A stretch of 56,541 bases of DNA, taken from contig JAHPZJ010000031.1 in the NCBI GenBank assembly GCA_019058245.1, forward strand, positions 1 to 56,541, given 5' to 3'. This document shows positions 2,266 through 55,693 of this stretch, one piece after another. Below the pieces are notes generated by a model. It made no database searches and was not told where the DNA came from. It saw only the letters and a list, made by a program, of their open reading frames with translations. The stretch's first letter is position 1. Each line of letters opens with the position of its first letter. Position numbers and translations under genes: made by a program. Origin of the DNA: Promethearchaeota archaeon. Lineage in GTDB: Archaea > Asgardarchaeota > Lokiarchaeia > Sigyniarchaeales > SOKP01.

Positions 2266-2487
2266 AATTATAGTATATATTTAACTTATAATAATTGACT
2301 ATTAATTTCATTTCATTTGTTTTAAACTCCTTTTAATAAAATTAATTAAGTAGACACCGAAATGATTTTATTTATAAACACATAATGATATATTAATGTT
2401 AAGATAGAAATTTATAATATACTCATATAAAATCATACATAAATATCTAAATTTATAAAAGCAACTATATTAAAACCTAAAAATCTA

Positions 2488-2608
2488 TGACTCCTGCCTA
2501 CACCCTGGATTTTTGTCTTTTGGTAGTGTAAATTCTTACACTCTGATTTCGCCCTCCTCCCCCTATTTTATTTTTGACGCTTATTTGCGTCGCGTAGGGC
2601 AGGAGTCA
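2488..2608. ncRNA. Candidate structured ncRNA (unknown family; a MITE-like element is the alternative)
   Basis: G+C-rich island in an AT-rich intergenic region. Terminal stem TGACTCCTGCCTAC (2488-2501) / GTAGGGCAGGAGTCA (2594-2608) with one bulge. Internal hairpins at 2525-2542 and 2576-2591. Confidence 0.55.
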
Positions 2609-2979
2609 CCCTTTATAACTCTAAATGAATTTATTTCTAATTTTAACGTTTTTTTAAATAAAATACCCTTCTACTCATTTAAAGTTAATTAGATTGAGCA
2701 AGATAAAGCATTGTAAAAACAAAATCATAGTAATATTACAATCTACTATTTAAAGTTAACTTTTATTAATTCTTTTAAAAAAGATTAAATAAAAATTAAT
2801 ATCTAACCATTTTAATAAGGTTAATAATCTTTTTTATTAAGATTACGCCGTTTTTTTAATAACATTTGTCATATTTACAAAGGTATTATAAAGTTTTTAA
2901 GATTAGAAAGGTTAATTAGTAAAATAATTATTCAATAAAACATTTATCTAATTAAAAAATAAACAGAGTATAGATTCAT

Positions 2980-4710
2980 ATGACTGAATTAGAAACTCAA
3001 TCTGCTCATAGAGAAGACGTGGAAATTATTAGAACAACCACGAGCATTTGTCCTGAATGTATGAAACATCTCGCCGCTGAAATTTACGTAGATCCTGAAA
3101 CTAATTGGGTAATGATGCGAAAGACTTGTAAGGACCATGGAGAATTCAAAGATAAGCTATCAATCGATCCTGAAGAATATAAATGGCAACAAAACATTAC
3201 AAACCAAATTGGTTCAACCGTAAATAATTCCACTCAGCCTGAATTTGTAAATTCTGGAATTAAAGAAATTAATAAAGGATGCCCGTATGATTGTGGTATA
3301 TGCGCCAATCATAAAAGTGCACCAAATATATGCTTAATTGATATCACTAATCGCTGTAATTTAGCTTGTCCTATCTGTTTTGCCAATGCTAGTGCAAAAG
3401 GTTATGTAGTAGAACCTACCTTCGAAGAACTCGTCCGAATTATGGAGCATTTCAGATCGATGAAACCTATCCCAGCAGTCTTACTCCAACTCTCCGGAGG
3501 AGAACCTACAGTAAGAGATGATCTCCCAGAAATAATCCGAAAAGGACATGAATTGGGCTTTACGGAAGTTATGGTTACCACCAATGGTGTTCGATTTGGA
3601 AAATCCATAGATTTTATGAAAGCATGTATTGATGCTGGAACGGATGCTATATATCTTCAATTTGACGCTACTGATAGCCCAGAAATATGGAAAAAGATCA
3701 GAGGTGTCAACTTATGGCCACTTAAAAAGAGAGTTATTGAAAATGCCCGAAAATTGGGATTTTATGGCGTTATGTTAGTCCCGGTAATCGCGAAAGGTGT
3801 AAATGACCAAGAAATTGGAAAAATTTTAGATTTTGCTAAAGATAATACTGATGTTGTCTCAGGTCTTATCTTCCAGCCAGTATCATTGACTGGGCGTATT
3901 AGTTTTGAGGAATTGATGGATATAAGATACACCACTTCTGATTTAAAACTGGCAATTAATAAATACACTAATGGATCTGTTACCCAATTTTATCCTATTG
4001 CATTTACTGCGAAATTTACCAGATTGTTAGCATGGTTTGACGACGTTGCGGAATTCGGTATGACAAGTCATAGTGATTGCGGCTTTGCAACTATATGTGT
4101 CATCAATGATAAGGATGAATGGGAACCAATCGAAAACTTTTTTGATGCTGAAGGATTAATTCGATGGGCTAATCAAGTATGGGATATGGTTCAAAAACAA
4201 GAAGTGCCAAAACCTACTGGTTTATTGAAAGGTATTAATCTAGAGGATTTTGGGCAGATTGCTTCCAAAATTGGAAATTTTGTTGATGATATGACCAATT
4301 TAGGATACAGACAGATTATGAAAGCATATTTTTTTGCGGGTGCAGCAAAATATATTAAAAATCCGCAAAAAATTCTTACTAGTAAAACATATCAAGCATT
4401 TGCTCGTTTGGTAATGGCACCAAATTTAGCATCAGCAGGGAAATTTTTCCACGATCGGAACCTGATGGTTAGCTCAATGCATTTTCAAGATGCGTATAAT
4501 TTCGATCTCGATAGAGTCTGTCGATGTCTTGTACATTATGGTGTAATTGATCCAGATGATCCTAGCAAAGTTCGCGAAATTCCGTTCTGCGCCCATAATA
4601 CATTGCATCGTCCTATTATAGAACGACAGCTTGCGATTAAAGGTCAAACAGCTAAAAAACCTGAAGAGATTATGGCAGAAATCGAGGAATTATTAAAAAC
4701 AATGGAGTAA
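2980..4710 (+). CDS. tes: Radical SAM tetraether lipid synthase (Tes/GDGT-MAS, MJ0619 family)
   Basis: N-terminal SICPEC...CxxHG, CPYDCGICxxH, radical SAM motif CNLACPICFA, LSGGEPT, HSDCG, and C-terminal RVCRCLVHY...IPFC. Confidence 0.8.
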   Translation: MTELETQSAHREDVEIIRTTTSICPECMKHLAAEIYVDPETNWVMMRKTCKDHGEFKDKLSIDPEEYKWQQNITNQIGSTVNNSTQPEFVNSGIKEINKGCPYDCGICANHKSAPNICLIDITNRCNLACPICFANASAKGYVVEPTFEELVRIMEHFRSMKPIPAVLLQLSGGEPTVRDDLPEIIRKGHELGFTEVMVTTNGVRFGKSIDFMKACIDAGTDAIYLQFDATDSPEIWKKIRGVNLWPLKKRVIENARKLGFYGVMLVPVIAKGVNDQEIGKILDFAKDNTDVVSGLIFQPVSLTGRISFEELMDIRYTTSDLKLAINKYTNGSVTQFYPIAFTAKFTRLLAWFDDVAEFGMTSHSDCGFATICVINDKDEWEPIENFFDAEGLIRWANQVWDMVQKQEVPKPTGLLKGINLEDFGQIASKIGNFVDDMTNLGYRQIMKAYFFAGAAKYIKNPQKILTSKTYQAFARLVMAPNLASAGKFFHDRNLMVSSMHFQDAYNFDLDRVCRCLVHYGVIDPDDPSKVREIPFCAHNTLHRPIIERQLAIKGQTAKKPEEIMAEIEELLKTME

Positions 4711-15372: not shown

Positions 15373-15939
15373 ATGGTTGAAAAAGATAAGAGGAAATGGG
15401 CAATTAAATTAACAGTATTAGGTGATCCTGCAGTAGGAAAAACCTCCTTAATTGATAAATATATTACAGATTCCTTTAAGGAAAATTATCAACCAACCTT
15501 AGGAGTCAATATCGTAACCAAGGATATACGGATTAAAGAAGACAATTCCGAAATCCGGCTACTTCTCTGGGATATTGCTGGACAGGATAAATATGAATTA
15601 ACACGTCAGATGTTTTTTCAAGGATGTTCAGGAACTCTCCTCGTTTATGATATGACAAGATATTTCACCTTTGAACGCGTGAAGACTAAATGGCTTGAGG
15701 ATTTTAAAAATTATGGTAGACCAGATGGAATTTATATGTTGATTGGAAACAAATCTGATTTAAAAAATTCTATCAAAGTGTCATCAGAAGAAGGTAAATC
15801 CCTATCTGAAGAGATTAATGCAGTAGAATTCGTTGAAACTTCCGCAAAATATGGTGAAAATGTTGAGAAAGCTTTTAGAACTTTAGTATCTCATGTATTG
15901 GGAAAGCTTGGTGTTAACATAGATTTTGAATTGCAATAA
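15373..15939 (+). CDS. Rab/Ras-like small GTPase
   Basis: GDPAVGKT, WDIAGQD, NKSD, ETSAK. Confidence 0.95.
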   Translation: MVEKDKRKWAIKLTVLGDPAVGKTSLIDKYITDSFKENYQPTLGVNIVTKDIRIKEDNSEIRLLLWDIAGQDKYELTRQMFFQGCSGTLLVYDMTRYFTFERVKTKWLEDFKNYGRPDGIYMLIGNKSDLKNSIKVSSEEGKSLSEEINAVEFVETSAKYGENVEKAFRTLVSHVLGKLGVNIDFELQ

Positions 15940-15978
15940 GACTATATTAAAAATAATAATATATGAAAATGTAACAAA

Positions 15979-16545
15979 ATGATAGGAGAATATAAAGGAT
16001 CGGTAAAAAACAAGGTACTTGTAGCACTTCTCCAGGCATACCATGATATACTTGATTATGATGGAATGAAATCTATTTTACGAGAAGCAGAAATGTTGTA
16101 TTTGAAGGATATAGGAAATAAAAATCCGAATGATTCAATAGATTTTTTCTCCTTCAAGAAAATCATTTCTGCCCAAAATTGTTTATTATATGATTCCTCC
16201 ATACTTCTTTTTGAGATTGGAAAGAAATTCTCCTTCTACTTATTTCCTTTTGGAATTAATTTTGAGGAAATAATTGAAAATATTAATTCTTTAATTCTTA
16301 CGGATTGGAAGGTTGAAATTATAGAAAATAATTCAGATGAAATAACAGTTCGAGTAGATAAATGCATATTTTGTTCAGAAATAGGTATTCCCTGTGCTTT
16401 ATTTGCTGGATTCTTAGTTTATTCTTTACAAAAATCATTACCCTCAGATTTTTTTGTTAATTATGAAATGGATAAACAAGACATTAATAAACCAAATCAC
16501 AATAACTTTGTTATTAAATTAAAAATTGGCAGAAATTTTAAATAG
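15979..16545 (+). CDS. V4R-like domain protein
   Basis: Helical N-terminus, FEIGKKF, CIFC...PCALFAGFL pattern typical of the V4R/Bet3-like fold. Confidence 0.65.
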   Translation: MIGEYKGSVKNKVLVALLQAYHDILDYDGMKSILREAEMLYLKDIGNKNPNDSIDFFSFKKIISAQNCLLYDSSILLFEIGKKFSFYLFPFGINFEEIIENINSLILTDWKVEIIENNSDEITVRVDKCIFCSEIGIPCALFAGFLVYSLQKSLPSDFFVNYEMDKQDINKPNHNNFVIKLKIGRNFK

Positions 16546-16655
16546 ATTAATAGCAAATATAATAATTGAAATCCTTTTCCATCAATAAAAAAATTTCTTT
16601 GGAAAATTAGAAATAAAGTATTAAATAGATTTACAACAAAGTTATTAATTGCATA

Positions 16656-17213
16656 ATGATTAAAGAAGAAGAATCTAAAGATCTACGAGAATTTGTATTT
16701 AAAATAGTAATTATTGGAGATGCCGCAGTAGGTAAAACTTCTTTAATAAATCAATTTGCAGAAAATTCCTTTAGTGAAGATTATAAACCTACACTCGGAG
16801 CTAATATAGTCAGAAAGGATGTAAATCTGAATAATACAAAAGTAAGACTGATAATGTGGGACCTCGCAGGACAAGAAAAGTATCGCGTAGTTCGGAGTAT
16901 GTACTTTCAGGGATGTGAAGGAGCACTTCTTGTTTATGATGTTACACGTTACCATACCTTGGAGAACATAAACAATAAATGGCTACGAGATTATAAAAAA
17001 CATGTAAAAAAGATGGGAGCTTTTATCTTAATTGGAAACAAAACCGATCTAAAAAACCAGGTAGCTGTCCCAACAGAAAAAGGAGAGGAATTAGCAAAAA
17101 AAATAAAAGCTAGTCATTTTATAGAAACGTCAGCAAAACTAGGTGAAAATATTGAAATGGCATTTTCCCTTTTAGTGAATCAAATATTGAGCAATAATGG
17201 CGTAATTATTTAA
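16656..17213 (+). CDS. Rab/Ras-like small GTPase
   Basis: GDAAVGKT, WDLAGQE, NKTD, ETSAK. Confidence 0.95.
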   Translation: MIKEEESKDLREFVFKIVIIGDAAVGKTSLINQFAENSFSEDYKPTLGANIVRKDVNLNNTKVRLIMWDLAGQEKYRVVRSMYFQGCEGALLVYDVTRYHTLENINNKWLRDYKKHVKKMGAFILIGNKTDLKNQVAVPTEKGEELAKKIKASHFIETSAKLGENIEMAFSLLVNQILSNNGVII

Positions 17214-24532: not shown

Positions 24533-25063
24533 TTAAGGATAATTTGAAATTTGATCTAAAATTCTTTTCGATAATTCTATAAATGCTTCTTCGACATTTT
24601 GACCCGTTTTAGCAGAAGTAATAATAATTCCTAAATTATTTTCATCAGCATATGCCATTGCTTGATCCTCAGTTATCTTAATTTGGTTTGTTAAATCAGA
24701 TTTATTTCCTATTAATATTATAGGAGCTGCATCTCTAGCTTCTCTAAAATCTTTTATCCAATCATTAAGTTTCTCATATGTCTTAATATTAGTCACGTCA
24801 TAGACTAATAACGCTCCATTTGCTCCTTCTAAATATAATTTCCTAAGAGATTTAAAGGATTCTTGACCCCCAAGGTCCCAAATTTGAGCAGAAACATCAC
24901 CATATTGCTCGATATTCATATCCTTCTTTAAAAGATTGACACCGAGAGTACTTTTATAATTTTCTCTAAATTTATTTTCTATAAATCTATAAACAAGTGA
25001 TGTCTTTCCCACATTGGCTTCTCCTAATAATGTTATCTTAATAATATATTTAGCTTCAGTCAT
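24533..25063 (-). CDS. Rab/Ras-like small GTPase
   Basis: GEANVGKT, WDLGGQE, NKSD, TSAK. Confidence 0.95.
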   Translation of the reverse strand: MTEAKYIIKITLLGEANVGKTSLVYRFIENKFRENYKSTLGVNLLKKDMNIEQYGDVSAQIWDLGGQESFKSLRKLYLEGANGALLVYDVTNIKTYEKLNDWIKDFREARDAAPIILIGNKSDLTNQIKITEDQAMAYADENNLGIIITSAKTGQNVEEAFIELSKRILDQISNYP

Positions 25064-25221
25064 AAATTATAACCTAATAAAAAACTTGTATATTTATTGT
25101 ATATTCAAAGTATAATTTGCACTTATTAATAATTTTCTAATACAACATTAAAATTGATAATCAACTTTGTGTATAATAATACTCTTCAAAAAAAGGAATT
25201 GTAAAACATTATTATGGAAAA

Positions 25222-25704
25222 TTAATCTTTCTGGAACACTATCATAAATTCACAATAATTCTCACCAGTTTGTAGACTACATCCAAGCTCTTGAGCAAAA
25301 CAATGTCGATCACTTAATTTTTCTACGACCCCTGCTAATATTCCCGCTTCAAACGAGCAAAAACTTCCTGACGATTTAATTCCTTTTTTAATTAAATCTT
25401 TTATAGATGAATGGTCCCTTAATTTTAATTGCACTATTTCTTCAGAACTTTCAGTAATCTCAACTGAACCTATATTGAATTCAGTAATAATTCGTTCTAA
25501 TTCTTCTGGAACTTGAGATACATCCTTAACTGCTTTAATTTTTAATGTACTTCCCAATTCATGTCCTAAATAATAAAAAATAGCTTCAAGTTGGTGTCCT
25601 AATGCTAGTAAAGCACCTACTTTCATATCTCCAATATCTTTACCTTCTTTTAGATTTTTTCTCATCTGGGCAAGAATTTTTGATAATAATTGCCTATCCA
25701 TCAA
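25222..25704 (-). CDS. V4R domain protein
   Basis: YYLGHELG, FCSFEAGILAG, ELGC...GENYCEF. Confidence 0.85.
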   Translation of the reverse strand: MMDRQLLSKILAQMRKNLKEGKDIGDMKVGALLALGHQLEAIFYYLGHELGSTLKIKAVKDVSQVPEELERIITEFNIGSVEITESSEEIVQLKLRDHSSIKDLIKKGIKSSGSFCSFEAGILAGVVEKLSDRHCFAQELGCSLQTGENYCEFMIVFQKD

Positions 25705-25736
25705 ATTTCACTCTTTTTTGTTTTTTTTTTTCATTT

Positions 25737-26036
25737 TTATATTTTAACTGAAGATATAAATGCATAGAGAACCGCATCTATAATCTCCTCTTCTTGGATG
25801 TTGACTGATAATCTCCTATCTGCTATAATTAAAGTGGGTACTGAAGTTATACGATACTCTTGAGTCAACTTTCTATTATCCTCCAATTCAATTGATATTT
25901 TTTCAATTCTTAATTTTTTTCCAAACAAAGAAATATTGATTTTTTTTAACATTTCTTCAACTGGTTTACATGGTGCACAATGATTTGAAGAGAAAAATAA
26001 GATTCTCGGATATCCTTGATTGATATCATCATACAT
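25737..26036 (-). CDS. Thioredoxin-fold protein
   Basis: FFSSNHCAPC (CxxC) and the cis-Pro motif SVPTL. Confidence 0.85.
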   Translation of the reverse strand: MYDDINQGYPRILFFSSNHCAPCKPVEEMLKKINISLFGKKLRIEKISIELEDNRKLTQEYRITSVPTLIIADRRLSVNIQEEEIIDAVLYAFISSVKI

Positions 26037-26039
26037 TTT

Positions 26040-26579
26040 CTAATCTTCTTTATATTTATTATATAACTCTTTAATTATTGCCTGAAATGCTTCAAAAACG
26101 CCTTGTCCGGTTTTAGCAGAAGTTTTATAATACCCCATAAAATTCCTCTCTTCTACAATTTTCTTTATTTTTTTATCATCTAAATCTTTTTCATCAATTA
26201 AGTCGGTCTTATTTCCAAATAAAACAATAGGGAGATCTCCAGTATACTTTTTAATGTCTTCATGCCAATCTATAATATTATTAAAACTATCCTTATCCGT
26301 ATGTGAAAAGACTATAATTGCCGCCTTACTACCCTTATAAAACGTTGGGCGCATAAAATTAAATTCATCTTGTCCTGCAATATCCCAAAAAAATAATTTA
26401 CAATTATCACCATCTATTTCTTCGTCATATTTCGAAAATTGGGCACCTAGAGTCTTAATATAGTCCTTTTGAAAACTACCCTGCGTATATTTCTTAATTA
26501 AGGATGTTTTTCCAACAGCTCCATTACCAATGACAGTTATTTTAAATACGAATCCTTTAGCAGTCTCATTTTTTCCCAT
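26040..26579 (-). CDS. Rab/Ras-like small GTPase
   Basis: GNGAVGKT, WDIAGQD, NKTD, TSAK. Confidence 0.95.
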   Translation of the reverse strand: MGKNETAKGFVFKITVIGNGAVGKTSLIKKYTQGSFQKDYIKTLGAQFSKYDEEIDGDNCKLFFWDIAGQDEFNFMRPTFYKGSKAAIIVFSHTDKDSFNNIIDWHEDIKKYTGDLPIVLFGNKTDLIDEKDLDDKKIKKIVEERNFMGYYKTSAKTGQGVFEAFQAIIKELYNKYKED

Positions 26580-54748: not shown

Positions 54749-55693
54749 TTATACTAAGCCTAAATCCCTTGAATAATCGAATTCTATTTTCACACCCTTT
54801 TGGTTCAGAAATGACAAGGCCTTAAAGGGGAGAGTACTTAACTTATTTCTCCAAAAACTTAGTTCTTTGAGAGAAAAGAGGTAGCTTATTGATTCTGGAA
54901 GAGTTTTTAACTTGTTATCATCTAAATAGAGTCTTTGAAGTGATTGAAGATTTCCTATTGATTCTGGGAGAATCTGTAACTTATTATTACGTAAATAAAG
55001 TCCTTGAAGCGATTGAAGGTTTCCTATTGATTCTGGGAGAATCTTTAACTTGTTATCACCCAAATAAAGTTTTTGAAGTGATTGAAGGGTTCCTATTGAT
55101 TCTGGAAGAGTTTCTAATTTATTATTATTTAAAATGAGTTCTTGAAGCGATTGGAGGTTTCCTATTGACTTCGGAAAAGTCGTTAACTGATTATAACTAA
55201 ACTTTGCACTTTTTAGTAAGGAAAGTTCACCTATAAACTCCGGGAGTGTTGTTAACTTATTCTTACGCAAATCAAGTTCTTGAAGCAATTTTAACTTAGT
55301 TATTGACTCTGGGAGAGTCGTGAGTTTATTCCTACCCAAATTAAGGAATATAAGAGATTTAAGGTTCGATATCGTCTCTGGGAGATTCGTTAACTTATTT
55401 CCTTCCAAAATCAGCTTTTTAAGAGAAGGAAGTTCACCTATAAACTCCGGAAGTGTTGTTAACTTATTCTTATGCAAATCAAGTTCTTGAAGCAATTTTA
55501 ATTTAGTTATTGACTCAGGGAGAGTAGGTATTCTATTCTTATATAGACCTAATCCAATGATATTACCATCTTCAATTTTAACTCCGTAAGTATTATATTT
55601 AAATCTTATTTCCGGAATGACCTTCCCAATAAGTAGCTCTAAATCCTTTAAAGCTTGAGCTTGTTCAGGCTTAACGTAGTATTCTTTACTCAT
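54749..55693 (-). CDS. Leucine-rich repeat protein
   Basis: About ten 23-aa repeats LPxSIGxLxxLxxLxLxxNKL. Confidence 0.93.
55224..55525. repeat. Near-identical ~95-bp direct duplication inside the LRR gene (207-bp spacing)
   Basis: 55224-55318 and 55431-55525 both encode [16 protein letters not shown](R/H)[14 protein letters not shown]. Confidence 0.85.

Follow-up and report, generated by a model that had tools for sequence, protein, structure and literature searches.

Evidence for an uncatalogued family of structured small RNA genes in Lokiarchaeia

The window analysed here, a stretch of 56,541 nucleotides from a Promethearchaeota archaeon of the Lokiarchaeia, very probably carries a member of a new family of stand-alone structured RNA genes. 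Taking all the evidence together, positions 2489-2614 of its plus strand are likely to encode a stable, stand-alone structured small RNA of an uncatalogued family that may act in trans as part of a ribonucleoprotein. A preliminary description, made from the sequence alone, had offered two identities for this element, namely a stable small RNA belonging to an unknown family or a MITE-like element. The former is supported by the lack of any Rfam match, the strong covariation, the syntenic locus, the presence of paralogs at other conserved loci, and the finding of metatranscriptome contigs that are confined to the element.

Locus and predicted structure

The element is located in a divergent spacer, flanked by a gene on the minus strand (1873-2265), whose 129-aa product has no family match, and by a Tes-like radical SAM gene (2980-4710; 434.8 bits on NCBIfam NF045702, cut-off 450). 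The latter gene, tes, lies downstream and on the same strand as the plus-strand reading of the window copy. The G+C content of the element is 44%, against 29% for the genome, in line with its original description as a G+C-rich element. The same description had recognized a 14-bp closing stem with one bulged base (2488-2501 pairing with 2594-2608, G2597 bulged) and two hairpins (2525-2531/2536-2542 and 2576-2580/2587-2591), all of which were recovered. Folding of a 136-nt stretch yields -41.5 kcal/mol on the plus strand (z -6.2) and -45.6 kcal/mol on the minus strand (z -6.4), and none of 200 shuffles is as stable as the element on either strand. The features are as follows.

2489-2614, plus strand: predicted small RNA gene, mature length about 125 nt (covariance models R1 and R2 match 2483-2617 at 162 and 153 bits)
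2488-2501, plus strand: P1, 5' strand of the 14-bp closing stem (14 of 14 pairs changed on both sides across the family; 92% of cells paired)
2594-2608, plus strand: P1, 3' strand, with G2597 bulged (from sequence, fold and covariation)
2503-2523, plus strand: P1a, two C-G pairs (2503/2523 and 2504/2522) around a U-rich loop (both pairs covary)
2525-2542, plus strand: P2, hairpin of 7 bp with a 4-nt loop (7 of 7 pairs covary; about 98% of cells paired)
2543-2575, plus strand: J2/3, single-stranded pyrimidine-rich strand (predicted unpaired probability 0.5-0.9, family average)
2576-2591, plus strand: P3, hairpin of 5 bp with a 6-nt loop (5 of 5 pairs covary; 97% of cells paired)
2609-2614, plus strand: 3' tail, CCC then TTT, abutting P1 (C-C-pyrimidine plus three to five T at a fixed position in most members)
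2452-2460, plus strand: candidate TATA-like box (present in the sequence; no position-specific promoter motif in 81 aligned upstream flanks)

Sequence conservation ends at the borders of the gene (47-84 aligned members). Judging from the aligned sequences, the 5' end would be placed at the first pair of the stem or immediately ahead of it, where a T-G step is conserved, and the 3' end within the T-run that follows the stem. The tail at 2609-2614 is probably both an archaeal oligo-T terminator and a single-stranded 3' overhang.

Covariation and sequence conservation

Base-pair covariation, which had been proposed as a check on the element, is strong. It was assessed on two alignments, a plain MAFFT alignment of 47 members (A2), which is strand-neutral, and a model-fitted alignment of 84 matches, 81 of them distinct, from several genera (A4). 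Because A4 leans towards structure, the MAFFT result was given more weight. In A2, 93.7% of the cells are paired, compared with 29-42% when the partners are slid, 19 pairs display double changes, and none of 500 column shuffles attains any of the five measures. The corresponding values for A4 are 94.7% of cells paired, double changes in all 28 pairs across the 81 distinct members, and a covariation score of 0.467 versus 0.146.

The conservation of the primary structure is the reverse of the helices, in that the stems are free to vary while the junctions are fixed. The core at 2505-2523 is a near-invariant signature of the family, with most columns invariant and the others at least 90% conserved (A2), and it is kept in other genera. 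This core includes the Sm-site-like heptad AUUUUUG (2509-2515), located inside the P1a loop, which is invariant or near-invariant in A2, is retained in the other genera of the family, and is partly paired in predicted ensembles. The sequence of P2 has been swapped wholesale in other genera, and that of P3 is variable, with the entire hairpin absent from some genera (it is missing in the g19 members). The strand between P2 and P3 comprises a conserved start adjoining P2, followed by a pyrimidine-rich tract with a C-rich block (2550-2563) in which CCUCC occurs twice. An alternative fold, in which the C-rich strand pairs with the 3' strand of P1, was also considered; by reading, it is feasible in the window copy and lost in paralogs with other stems, and it was rejected.

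Distribution and genomic context

Model R1 found between 1 and 18 matches in each of 123 of the 131 genomes of family f1, to which the window belongs, covering 12 of the 13 genera sampled. In the sister family f2 it matched two of 14 genomes, both of which belong to genus g8 (2 of 2 g8 genomes), and there was no match in two further families of the order. A cultured relative in genus g8, with a 6-Mb genome, carries two homologs. In a phylum-wide sample, the broader model R2 matched all 25 f1 genomes and returned one weak match (34.5 bits) in 125 other Asgard genomes. The exact 20-nt core is present in at least 120 contigs of a species-representative collection, nearly all titled Promethearchaeota or Promethearchaeia, the remainder being a few contigs under other Asgard phylum names and three contigs from bacterial-titled MAGs. 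Among the latter, the Clostridia- and Saccharibacteria-titled contigs (30-35 bits) look like partial or chance matches, while the Patescibacteria-titled contig, with two good matches (89 and 53 bits), is probably misbinned. Two genomes, G137 (18 matches) and G124 (12 matches), are far above the usual 1-7 matches per genome, which suggests lineage-specific expansion. Four exact matches to the core were also found in IMG/VR, one of which looks like a family member. This is L266:37-147 on the minus strand of a 225-kb record (45.6 bits), positioned at the very end of a viral-classed contig, and it may be either a misclassified Loki fragment or virus-borne.

The assembly from which the window derives consists of 31 contigs and is 76% complete. 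It encodes a second, diverged copy (C9:27964-28097), in which the closing stem and P2 differ by compensatory changes and another hairpin stands in the position of P3. BLAST aligns only 46 of 153 nt between the two copies. When 60 relatives were searched by BLAST, the element was found in 33 of the 36 genomes of the genus, and in approximately 25 of these the best match lies between the same two genes, i.e., the membrane-protein gene and tes. Among the orthologs at the tes locus, the interior of the RNA is almost identical, the flanking proteins are less so (72-90% protein identity for Tes and 65-86% for the membrane protein), and the AT-rich flanks are unalignable. The same synteny exists in a second genus, g19. 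Other paralogs form syntenic groups of their own: one is flanked by the genes for an HhH protein and for a Hel308-like helicase, another follows a CDF zinc transporter, and others adjoin LRR proteins. Thus, the genome comparison that had been suggested in order to separate a mobile element from an RNA gene yielded a single copy at the syntenic tes locus across species and genera, along with paralogs at other conserved loci. No transposase or integrase was found near the paralog loci, and no protein recurs as a neighbour across them. The syntenic copies and the lack of mobile-element genes indicate a gene family rather than a mobile element. With respect to the nearest ORFs of at least 100 aa, the copies occur in all four combinations of orientation, and several have a convergent gene 15-86 nt downstream. 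Both this range of orientations and the fixed tail abutting P1 argue that the RNA is transcribed independently of its neighbours and terminates directly behind the stem.

One relative, L047:1469-1607 on the minus strand (G011:C90), is chimeric. From the 3' half of P2 onward it resembles the family, with the C-rich strand and a P3-like hairpin in place, and its 5' part is unrelated and devoid of the U-rich core.

Transcription

The results from public sequencing runs hint at transcription of the small RNA. These data are assembled contigs, which show neither strand, ends nor level. In three metatranscriptome runs from three studies, the contigs matching the element fall within 2479-2596, and one of these runs also has a separate contig at 2963-3008. 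One RNA run of 36 million letters has 11 short contigs on the element with a summed depth of up to 42, while in a DNA run, possibly the source of this assembly, the whole 1.2 kb is covered at even depth. One RNA-run contig extends into 41 nt of the upstream flank of a relative, so DNA carry-over or a longer precursor is possible. Taken together, the contigs give a weak hint of an abundant small transcript from the element. One contig of run X18 contains adapter read-through, which would be compatible with an RNA from the plus strand only if the library was dUTP-stranded.

A TATA-like word, TTTATAAAA, had been pointed out at 2452-2460 as positioned for a plus-strand transcript. The word is indeed present in the window, but no TATA-like or other promoter motif occurs at a fixed distance across the 81 aligned upstream regions, and the role of 2452-2460 is therefore a guess. 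Separately, several paralog groups and genera share a word of the form A-A-A-A-T-A-G-G-purine upstream of the stem (e.g., L030, L025, L052 and L103), its distance from the stem varying between 20 and 45 nt. It could be a promoter element of the RNA family.

Intron-like inserts in relatives

Compared with the model, three sequences, namely the ortholog at the tes locus of G002 and the two copies of G069, have about 29-30 extra nucleotides at a single position. A pattern search of 135 genomes of the family revealed seven insert-bearing copies in six genomes, one in g1 and five in g20. These are L046:1504-1665 (G002, tes locus), L268:101-262 and L269:101-263 (G069), L277, L278, L280 and L281. The genomic positions of the two G069 copies are C13:26208-26369 and C1:126055-126217, and the G002 copy lies on C12 near 78148. 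In all seven the insert is positioned exactly between the equivalents of window positions 2557 and 2558, inside the C-rich strand; the window copy has no insert. The ends of the insert are conserved, with A-A-G at the start and a G-run followed by A-A at the end, and its inner hairpin covaries. Excision at both inferred junctions restores the consensus of the C-rich strand exactly in each of the seven copies.

To model the insert, four pairs between C-C-C-U before the junction and the G-run at the end of the insert were imposed as a constraint. The constrained fold has a 3-nt bulge containing the first junction and an inner helix, while the second junction resides in a stretch of 3 nt that lacks a closing outer helix. 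It lies above the unconstrained optimum by 1.8 kcal/mol in six copies and by 4.8 kcal/mol in the seventh. The insert can thus be modelled as a relaxed (HBh'-like) bulge-helix-bulge motif. The bulge-helix-bulge introns of archaea, which interrupt tRNA, rRNA and a few other RNAs, are matched by the size of the inserts (29-30 nt), their conserved ends and covarying inner hairpin, and a predicted helix of 4 bp with an unpaired stretch of 3 nt on either side, in which the two junctions are located. In contrast to those introns, the inserts allow only the relaxed form, without an outer exon-exon helix, their host is a small non-tRNA RNA, and their cleavage is a prediction. The inserts are probably endonuclease-spliced introns in a non-tRNA small RNA. 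Read in this way, they would imply that the molecule acts as an RNA, that it is transcribed from the plus strand, and that an intact C-rich strand is important to it.

Comparison with known RNA classes

The results from searches against Rfam 15 indicate no match at gathering in the whole window and none at E values up to 10 in the region 2300-2980. Eight diverse members of the family, searched at E up to 1, gave one chance match of 24 bits against a cut-off of 60. The comparison with Rfam, a match in which had been named as removing novelty, hence returned no known family for the element. Full-text searches of the literature found no description of this RNA, and nothing on Asgard non-coding RNAs was found there beyond rRNA, tRNA and guide RNAs.

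The impression gained by eye that the element is neither a tRNA nor a 5S rRNA is corroborated by ARAGORN and by Rfam (including RF00001), which have no match at the element. It resembles 5S rRNA in its size of approximately 120 nt and in the closing helix formed by both ends; however, the absence of an RF00001 match is accompanied by a separate, divergent 5S gene elsewhere in the genus, because of which the identity was rejected. The 5S gene of the genus is L068:496-617 on the minus strand (G024:C28:194172-194283), with homologs in G006 and G001. It scores 32 bits on RF00001, below the gathering score of 38, and would therefore be missed by standard annotation pipelines. A 5S-like gene was not found in G000 or G023. 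With the Rfam archaeal SSU and LSU models, no 16S or 23S gene was found in G000 or in the single-contig G006, which yielded a 53-nt LSU fragment. The rRNA genes of these two genomes may be unassembled, or unusually interrupted or expanded.

A box C/D sRNA was considered as well. By reading, the element contains no C box (RUGAUGA), and the CUGA that follows P2 in the window copy is neither kept in other genera nor near the 3' end, so that this candidate was discarded. Y RNAs and vault RNAs are closer in general appearance, since they too are about 100-125 nt long, have 5' and 3' ends that pair into a long closing stem, contain an unpaired pyrimidine-rich stretch in their interior, end in a short U tail, and are encoded by a few paralogs per genome. 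Unlike the situation with Y RNAs, however, no Ro60/TROVE gene (PF05731) was found in any of five genomes searched, while control genomes were matched. Furthermore, Ro binds a conserved helix, whereas the sequence of P1 varies freely among paralogs, with double changes in 14 of its 14 pairs, and the element matches neither the Rfam Y_RNA nor the vault models.

Alternative explanations

The strand of the transcript had been left unresolved in the preliminary description. That caution holds for the window copy by itself, which folds slightly better on the minus strand, but the family as a whole leans to the plus strand. The same structured RNA transcribed from the minus strand would expose purine-rich single strands, both G-rich and A-rich, and its case consists of the stability of the window copy (-45.6 kcal/mol on the minus strand, -41.5 on the plus strand) and of the U-tracts after the stem that had been noted for a minus-strand RNA, which are real because the upstream flank is A-rich on the plus strand. 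These two points leave it a small share of the probability. The plus strand is favoured by the excess of G-U pairs over A-C mismatches when the alignments are read in that direction (44:23 in A2 and 91:36 in A4), by the greater stability of this strand in 68 of the 81 members, by the conserved tail at a fixed position after P1, and by the inserts of the seven relatives, which form a splicing-type motif and restore the consensus only on the plus strand. Accepting a plus-strand RNA, it might still be a cis-acting leader or riboswitch that controls tes, given that the copy at this locus always precedes tes by 180-415 nt in the same orientation and that variable helices around conserved junction nucleotides are a pattern typical of riboswitches. 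We regard this as improbable, because the paralogs adjoin unrelated genes in all four orientations, including those followed closely by a convergent gene, because nearly all members have a T-run right after P1 and no alternative expression platform, and because the RNA-run contigs end at the element, the sole exception being the separate short piece at the start of tes. Even less probable is a tRNA-like molecule that would be handled by tRNA enzymes, i.e., the splicing endonuclease and perhaps the CCA-adding enzyme, and would serve as a mimic or decoy. Its four-helix topology, with helices and linkers in an order mimicking the cloverleaf, the N-C-C that follows the closing stem in most tails, and the putative tRNA-type intron of some members speak for it, but ARAGORN detects no gene in the window and Rfam no tRNA or tRNA-like match even at an E value of 10, there is no consensus D-loop or T-loop, the closing stem has 14 bp rather than 7, and P3 is dispensable in some genera.

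A MITE, or another DNA-level repeat in which the apparent stem represents terminal inverted repeats, would explain the several copies per genome, the occurrence of some of these at contig ends, and the 14-bp inverted repeats at the ends of the element. This second identity offered in the preliminary description is scarcely credible in view of the synteny of each locus across species and even genera, the strong divergence of copies within the same genome, the compensatory nature of the changes in the supposed inverted repeats, in which G-U pairs are tolerated, and the lack of transposase genes nearby; nor was a target duplication seen in the flanks, as the description itself had recorded. Finally, an ATG precedes the stem in 53 of the 81 members and a frame of 14 codons is kept in 35, so that a micro-peptide initiated at 2487 might be imagined. 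The other 28 members have no ATG, however, the conserved core falls into one of three frames depending on the member, and the changes in the stems are compensatory for pairing and not synonymous, which reduces the probability of a micro-peptide to a negligible level. A stand-alone structured small RNA read from the plus strand is thus the explanation that we prefer.

Possible function and significance

The RNA has four helices, namely the 14-bp P1 formed from the two ends, the tiny P1a presenting the U-rich loop, P2 and P3, with a long unpaired C-rich strand between P2 and P3 and a short C-C-U-U-U tail after P1. Its genes, several per genome and at fixed chromosomal places, are confined to one family of Lokiarchaeia and one genus of the sister family. 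In the mechanism that we propose, a small ribonucleoprotein containing the RNA would work in trans. The near-invariant loop with the Sm-consensus heptad, P2, and the conserved start of the P2-P3 strand could constitute a docking platform for a common protein, for which an archaeal Sm-like ring would be the first candidate. The exposed, paralog-specific C-rich strand could then pair with purine-rich sequences, e.g., ribosome-binding sites. This combination of docking and pairing is tentative, and we consider it rather doubtful in its specifics.

AUUUUUG is the Sm-site consensus of eukaryotic snRNP cores. The near-invariant heptad of the element is identical to it and is likewise located between helices, here P1 and P2, and Sm-like proteins are encoded in these genomes. 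As with the Sm-class snRNAs (U1, U2, U4, U5 and U7) and the Lsm/Hfq-bound sRNAs, the element is a small, stable RNA of a small multi-gene family. Nevertheless, it bears no sequence or model similarity to any snRNA in Rfam, its two ends are paired, archaea have no spliceosome, binding of an Sm ring is putative, and the heptad is one U shorter in genus g8. A U-rich heptad is, moreover, weak evidence for Sm binding in a genome of 29% G+C. The number of LSM-domain genes was tried as evidence for the partner and found not to discriminate, since there are 4-6 per genome in the genus and three in two sister-family relatives, and relatives that lack the RNA possess LSM genes too. The more specific idea that the family represents the RNA part of an archaeal Sm-class particle, with an Asgard Sm-like ring on the AUUUUUG loop and the variable C-rich strand as a guide, is in our judgement unlikely.

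With regard to the C-rich strand, CCUCC is complementary to GGAGG, which shows the highest enrichment (9.9-fold) of all 5-mers in the regions preceding the start codons of this genome. Trans-acting sRNAs with C/U-rich anti-Shine-Dalgarno motifs include sRNA41 of Methanosarcina mazei and the bacterial RsaE, AbcR and 'cuckoo' RNAs. The element is similar to these in that its strand of the CCUCC type, predicted to be exposed, complements the core of the host ribosome-binding site, and in that paralogs differ in that strand. It differs in the lack of homology, in the position of the motif in a junction strand and not in a hairpin loop, in the lack of a specific target, and in its better conserved U-rich module, which has no counterpart in those sRNAs. 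When the organism's own genome was searched for extended antisense matches to the C-rich strand and to the U-rich loop, none turned up outside the two RNA genes. The matches to the C-rich strand are of only 10-12 nt, a few of them lie just upstream of start codons, and none is extended or conserved. Consequently, pairing would have to rely on short, unspecific Shine-Dalgarno-like matches, and a protein or tertiary contact is a better explanation for the U-rich loop than a role as seed.

The tighter conservation of the RNA compared with the surrounding proteins, its near-universal presence in the family, the up to 18 matches per genome and the apparent transcription in sediments suggest a core component of the cell. 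Eukaryotes have no closer known relatives than the Asgard archaea. Should an Sm ring be the protein partner, the family would bear on the origin of snRNP-like particles, and if the reading as an Sm-class particle is true, it would represent a prokaryotic counterpart or forerunner of the snRNP architecture, some of whose genes would have endonuclease-spliced introns. If no Sm ring is involved, it would still be a well-supported orphan RNA class for Rfam and for the annotation of Lokiarchaeia. Cultures of Loki-type archaea exist, and three features are open to cheap, direct tests: the Sm-site-like loop, the strand complementary to ribosome-binding sites, and the putative tRNA-type introns of some copies.

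Further observations in the window

Two other regions of the window contain repeats. The 69-nt tandem repeat at 54749-55693 on the minus strand, with at least nine units, is ordinary and encodes the 23-aa units of a leucine-rich-repeat protein of 314 aa; LRR genes adjoin several paralogs of the small RNA as well. Positions 15560-17056 and 24581-26556 are joined by long pairs of direct and inverted repeats (I1, I2, D11 and D19). One of these resembles the NKxD motif of small GTPases, and the two regions may therefore contain paralogous Ras-like GTPase genes, which are common in Asgard genomes.
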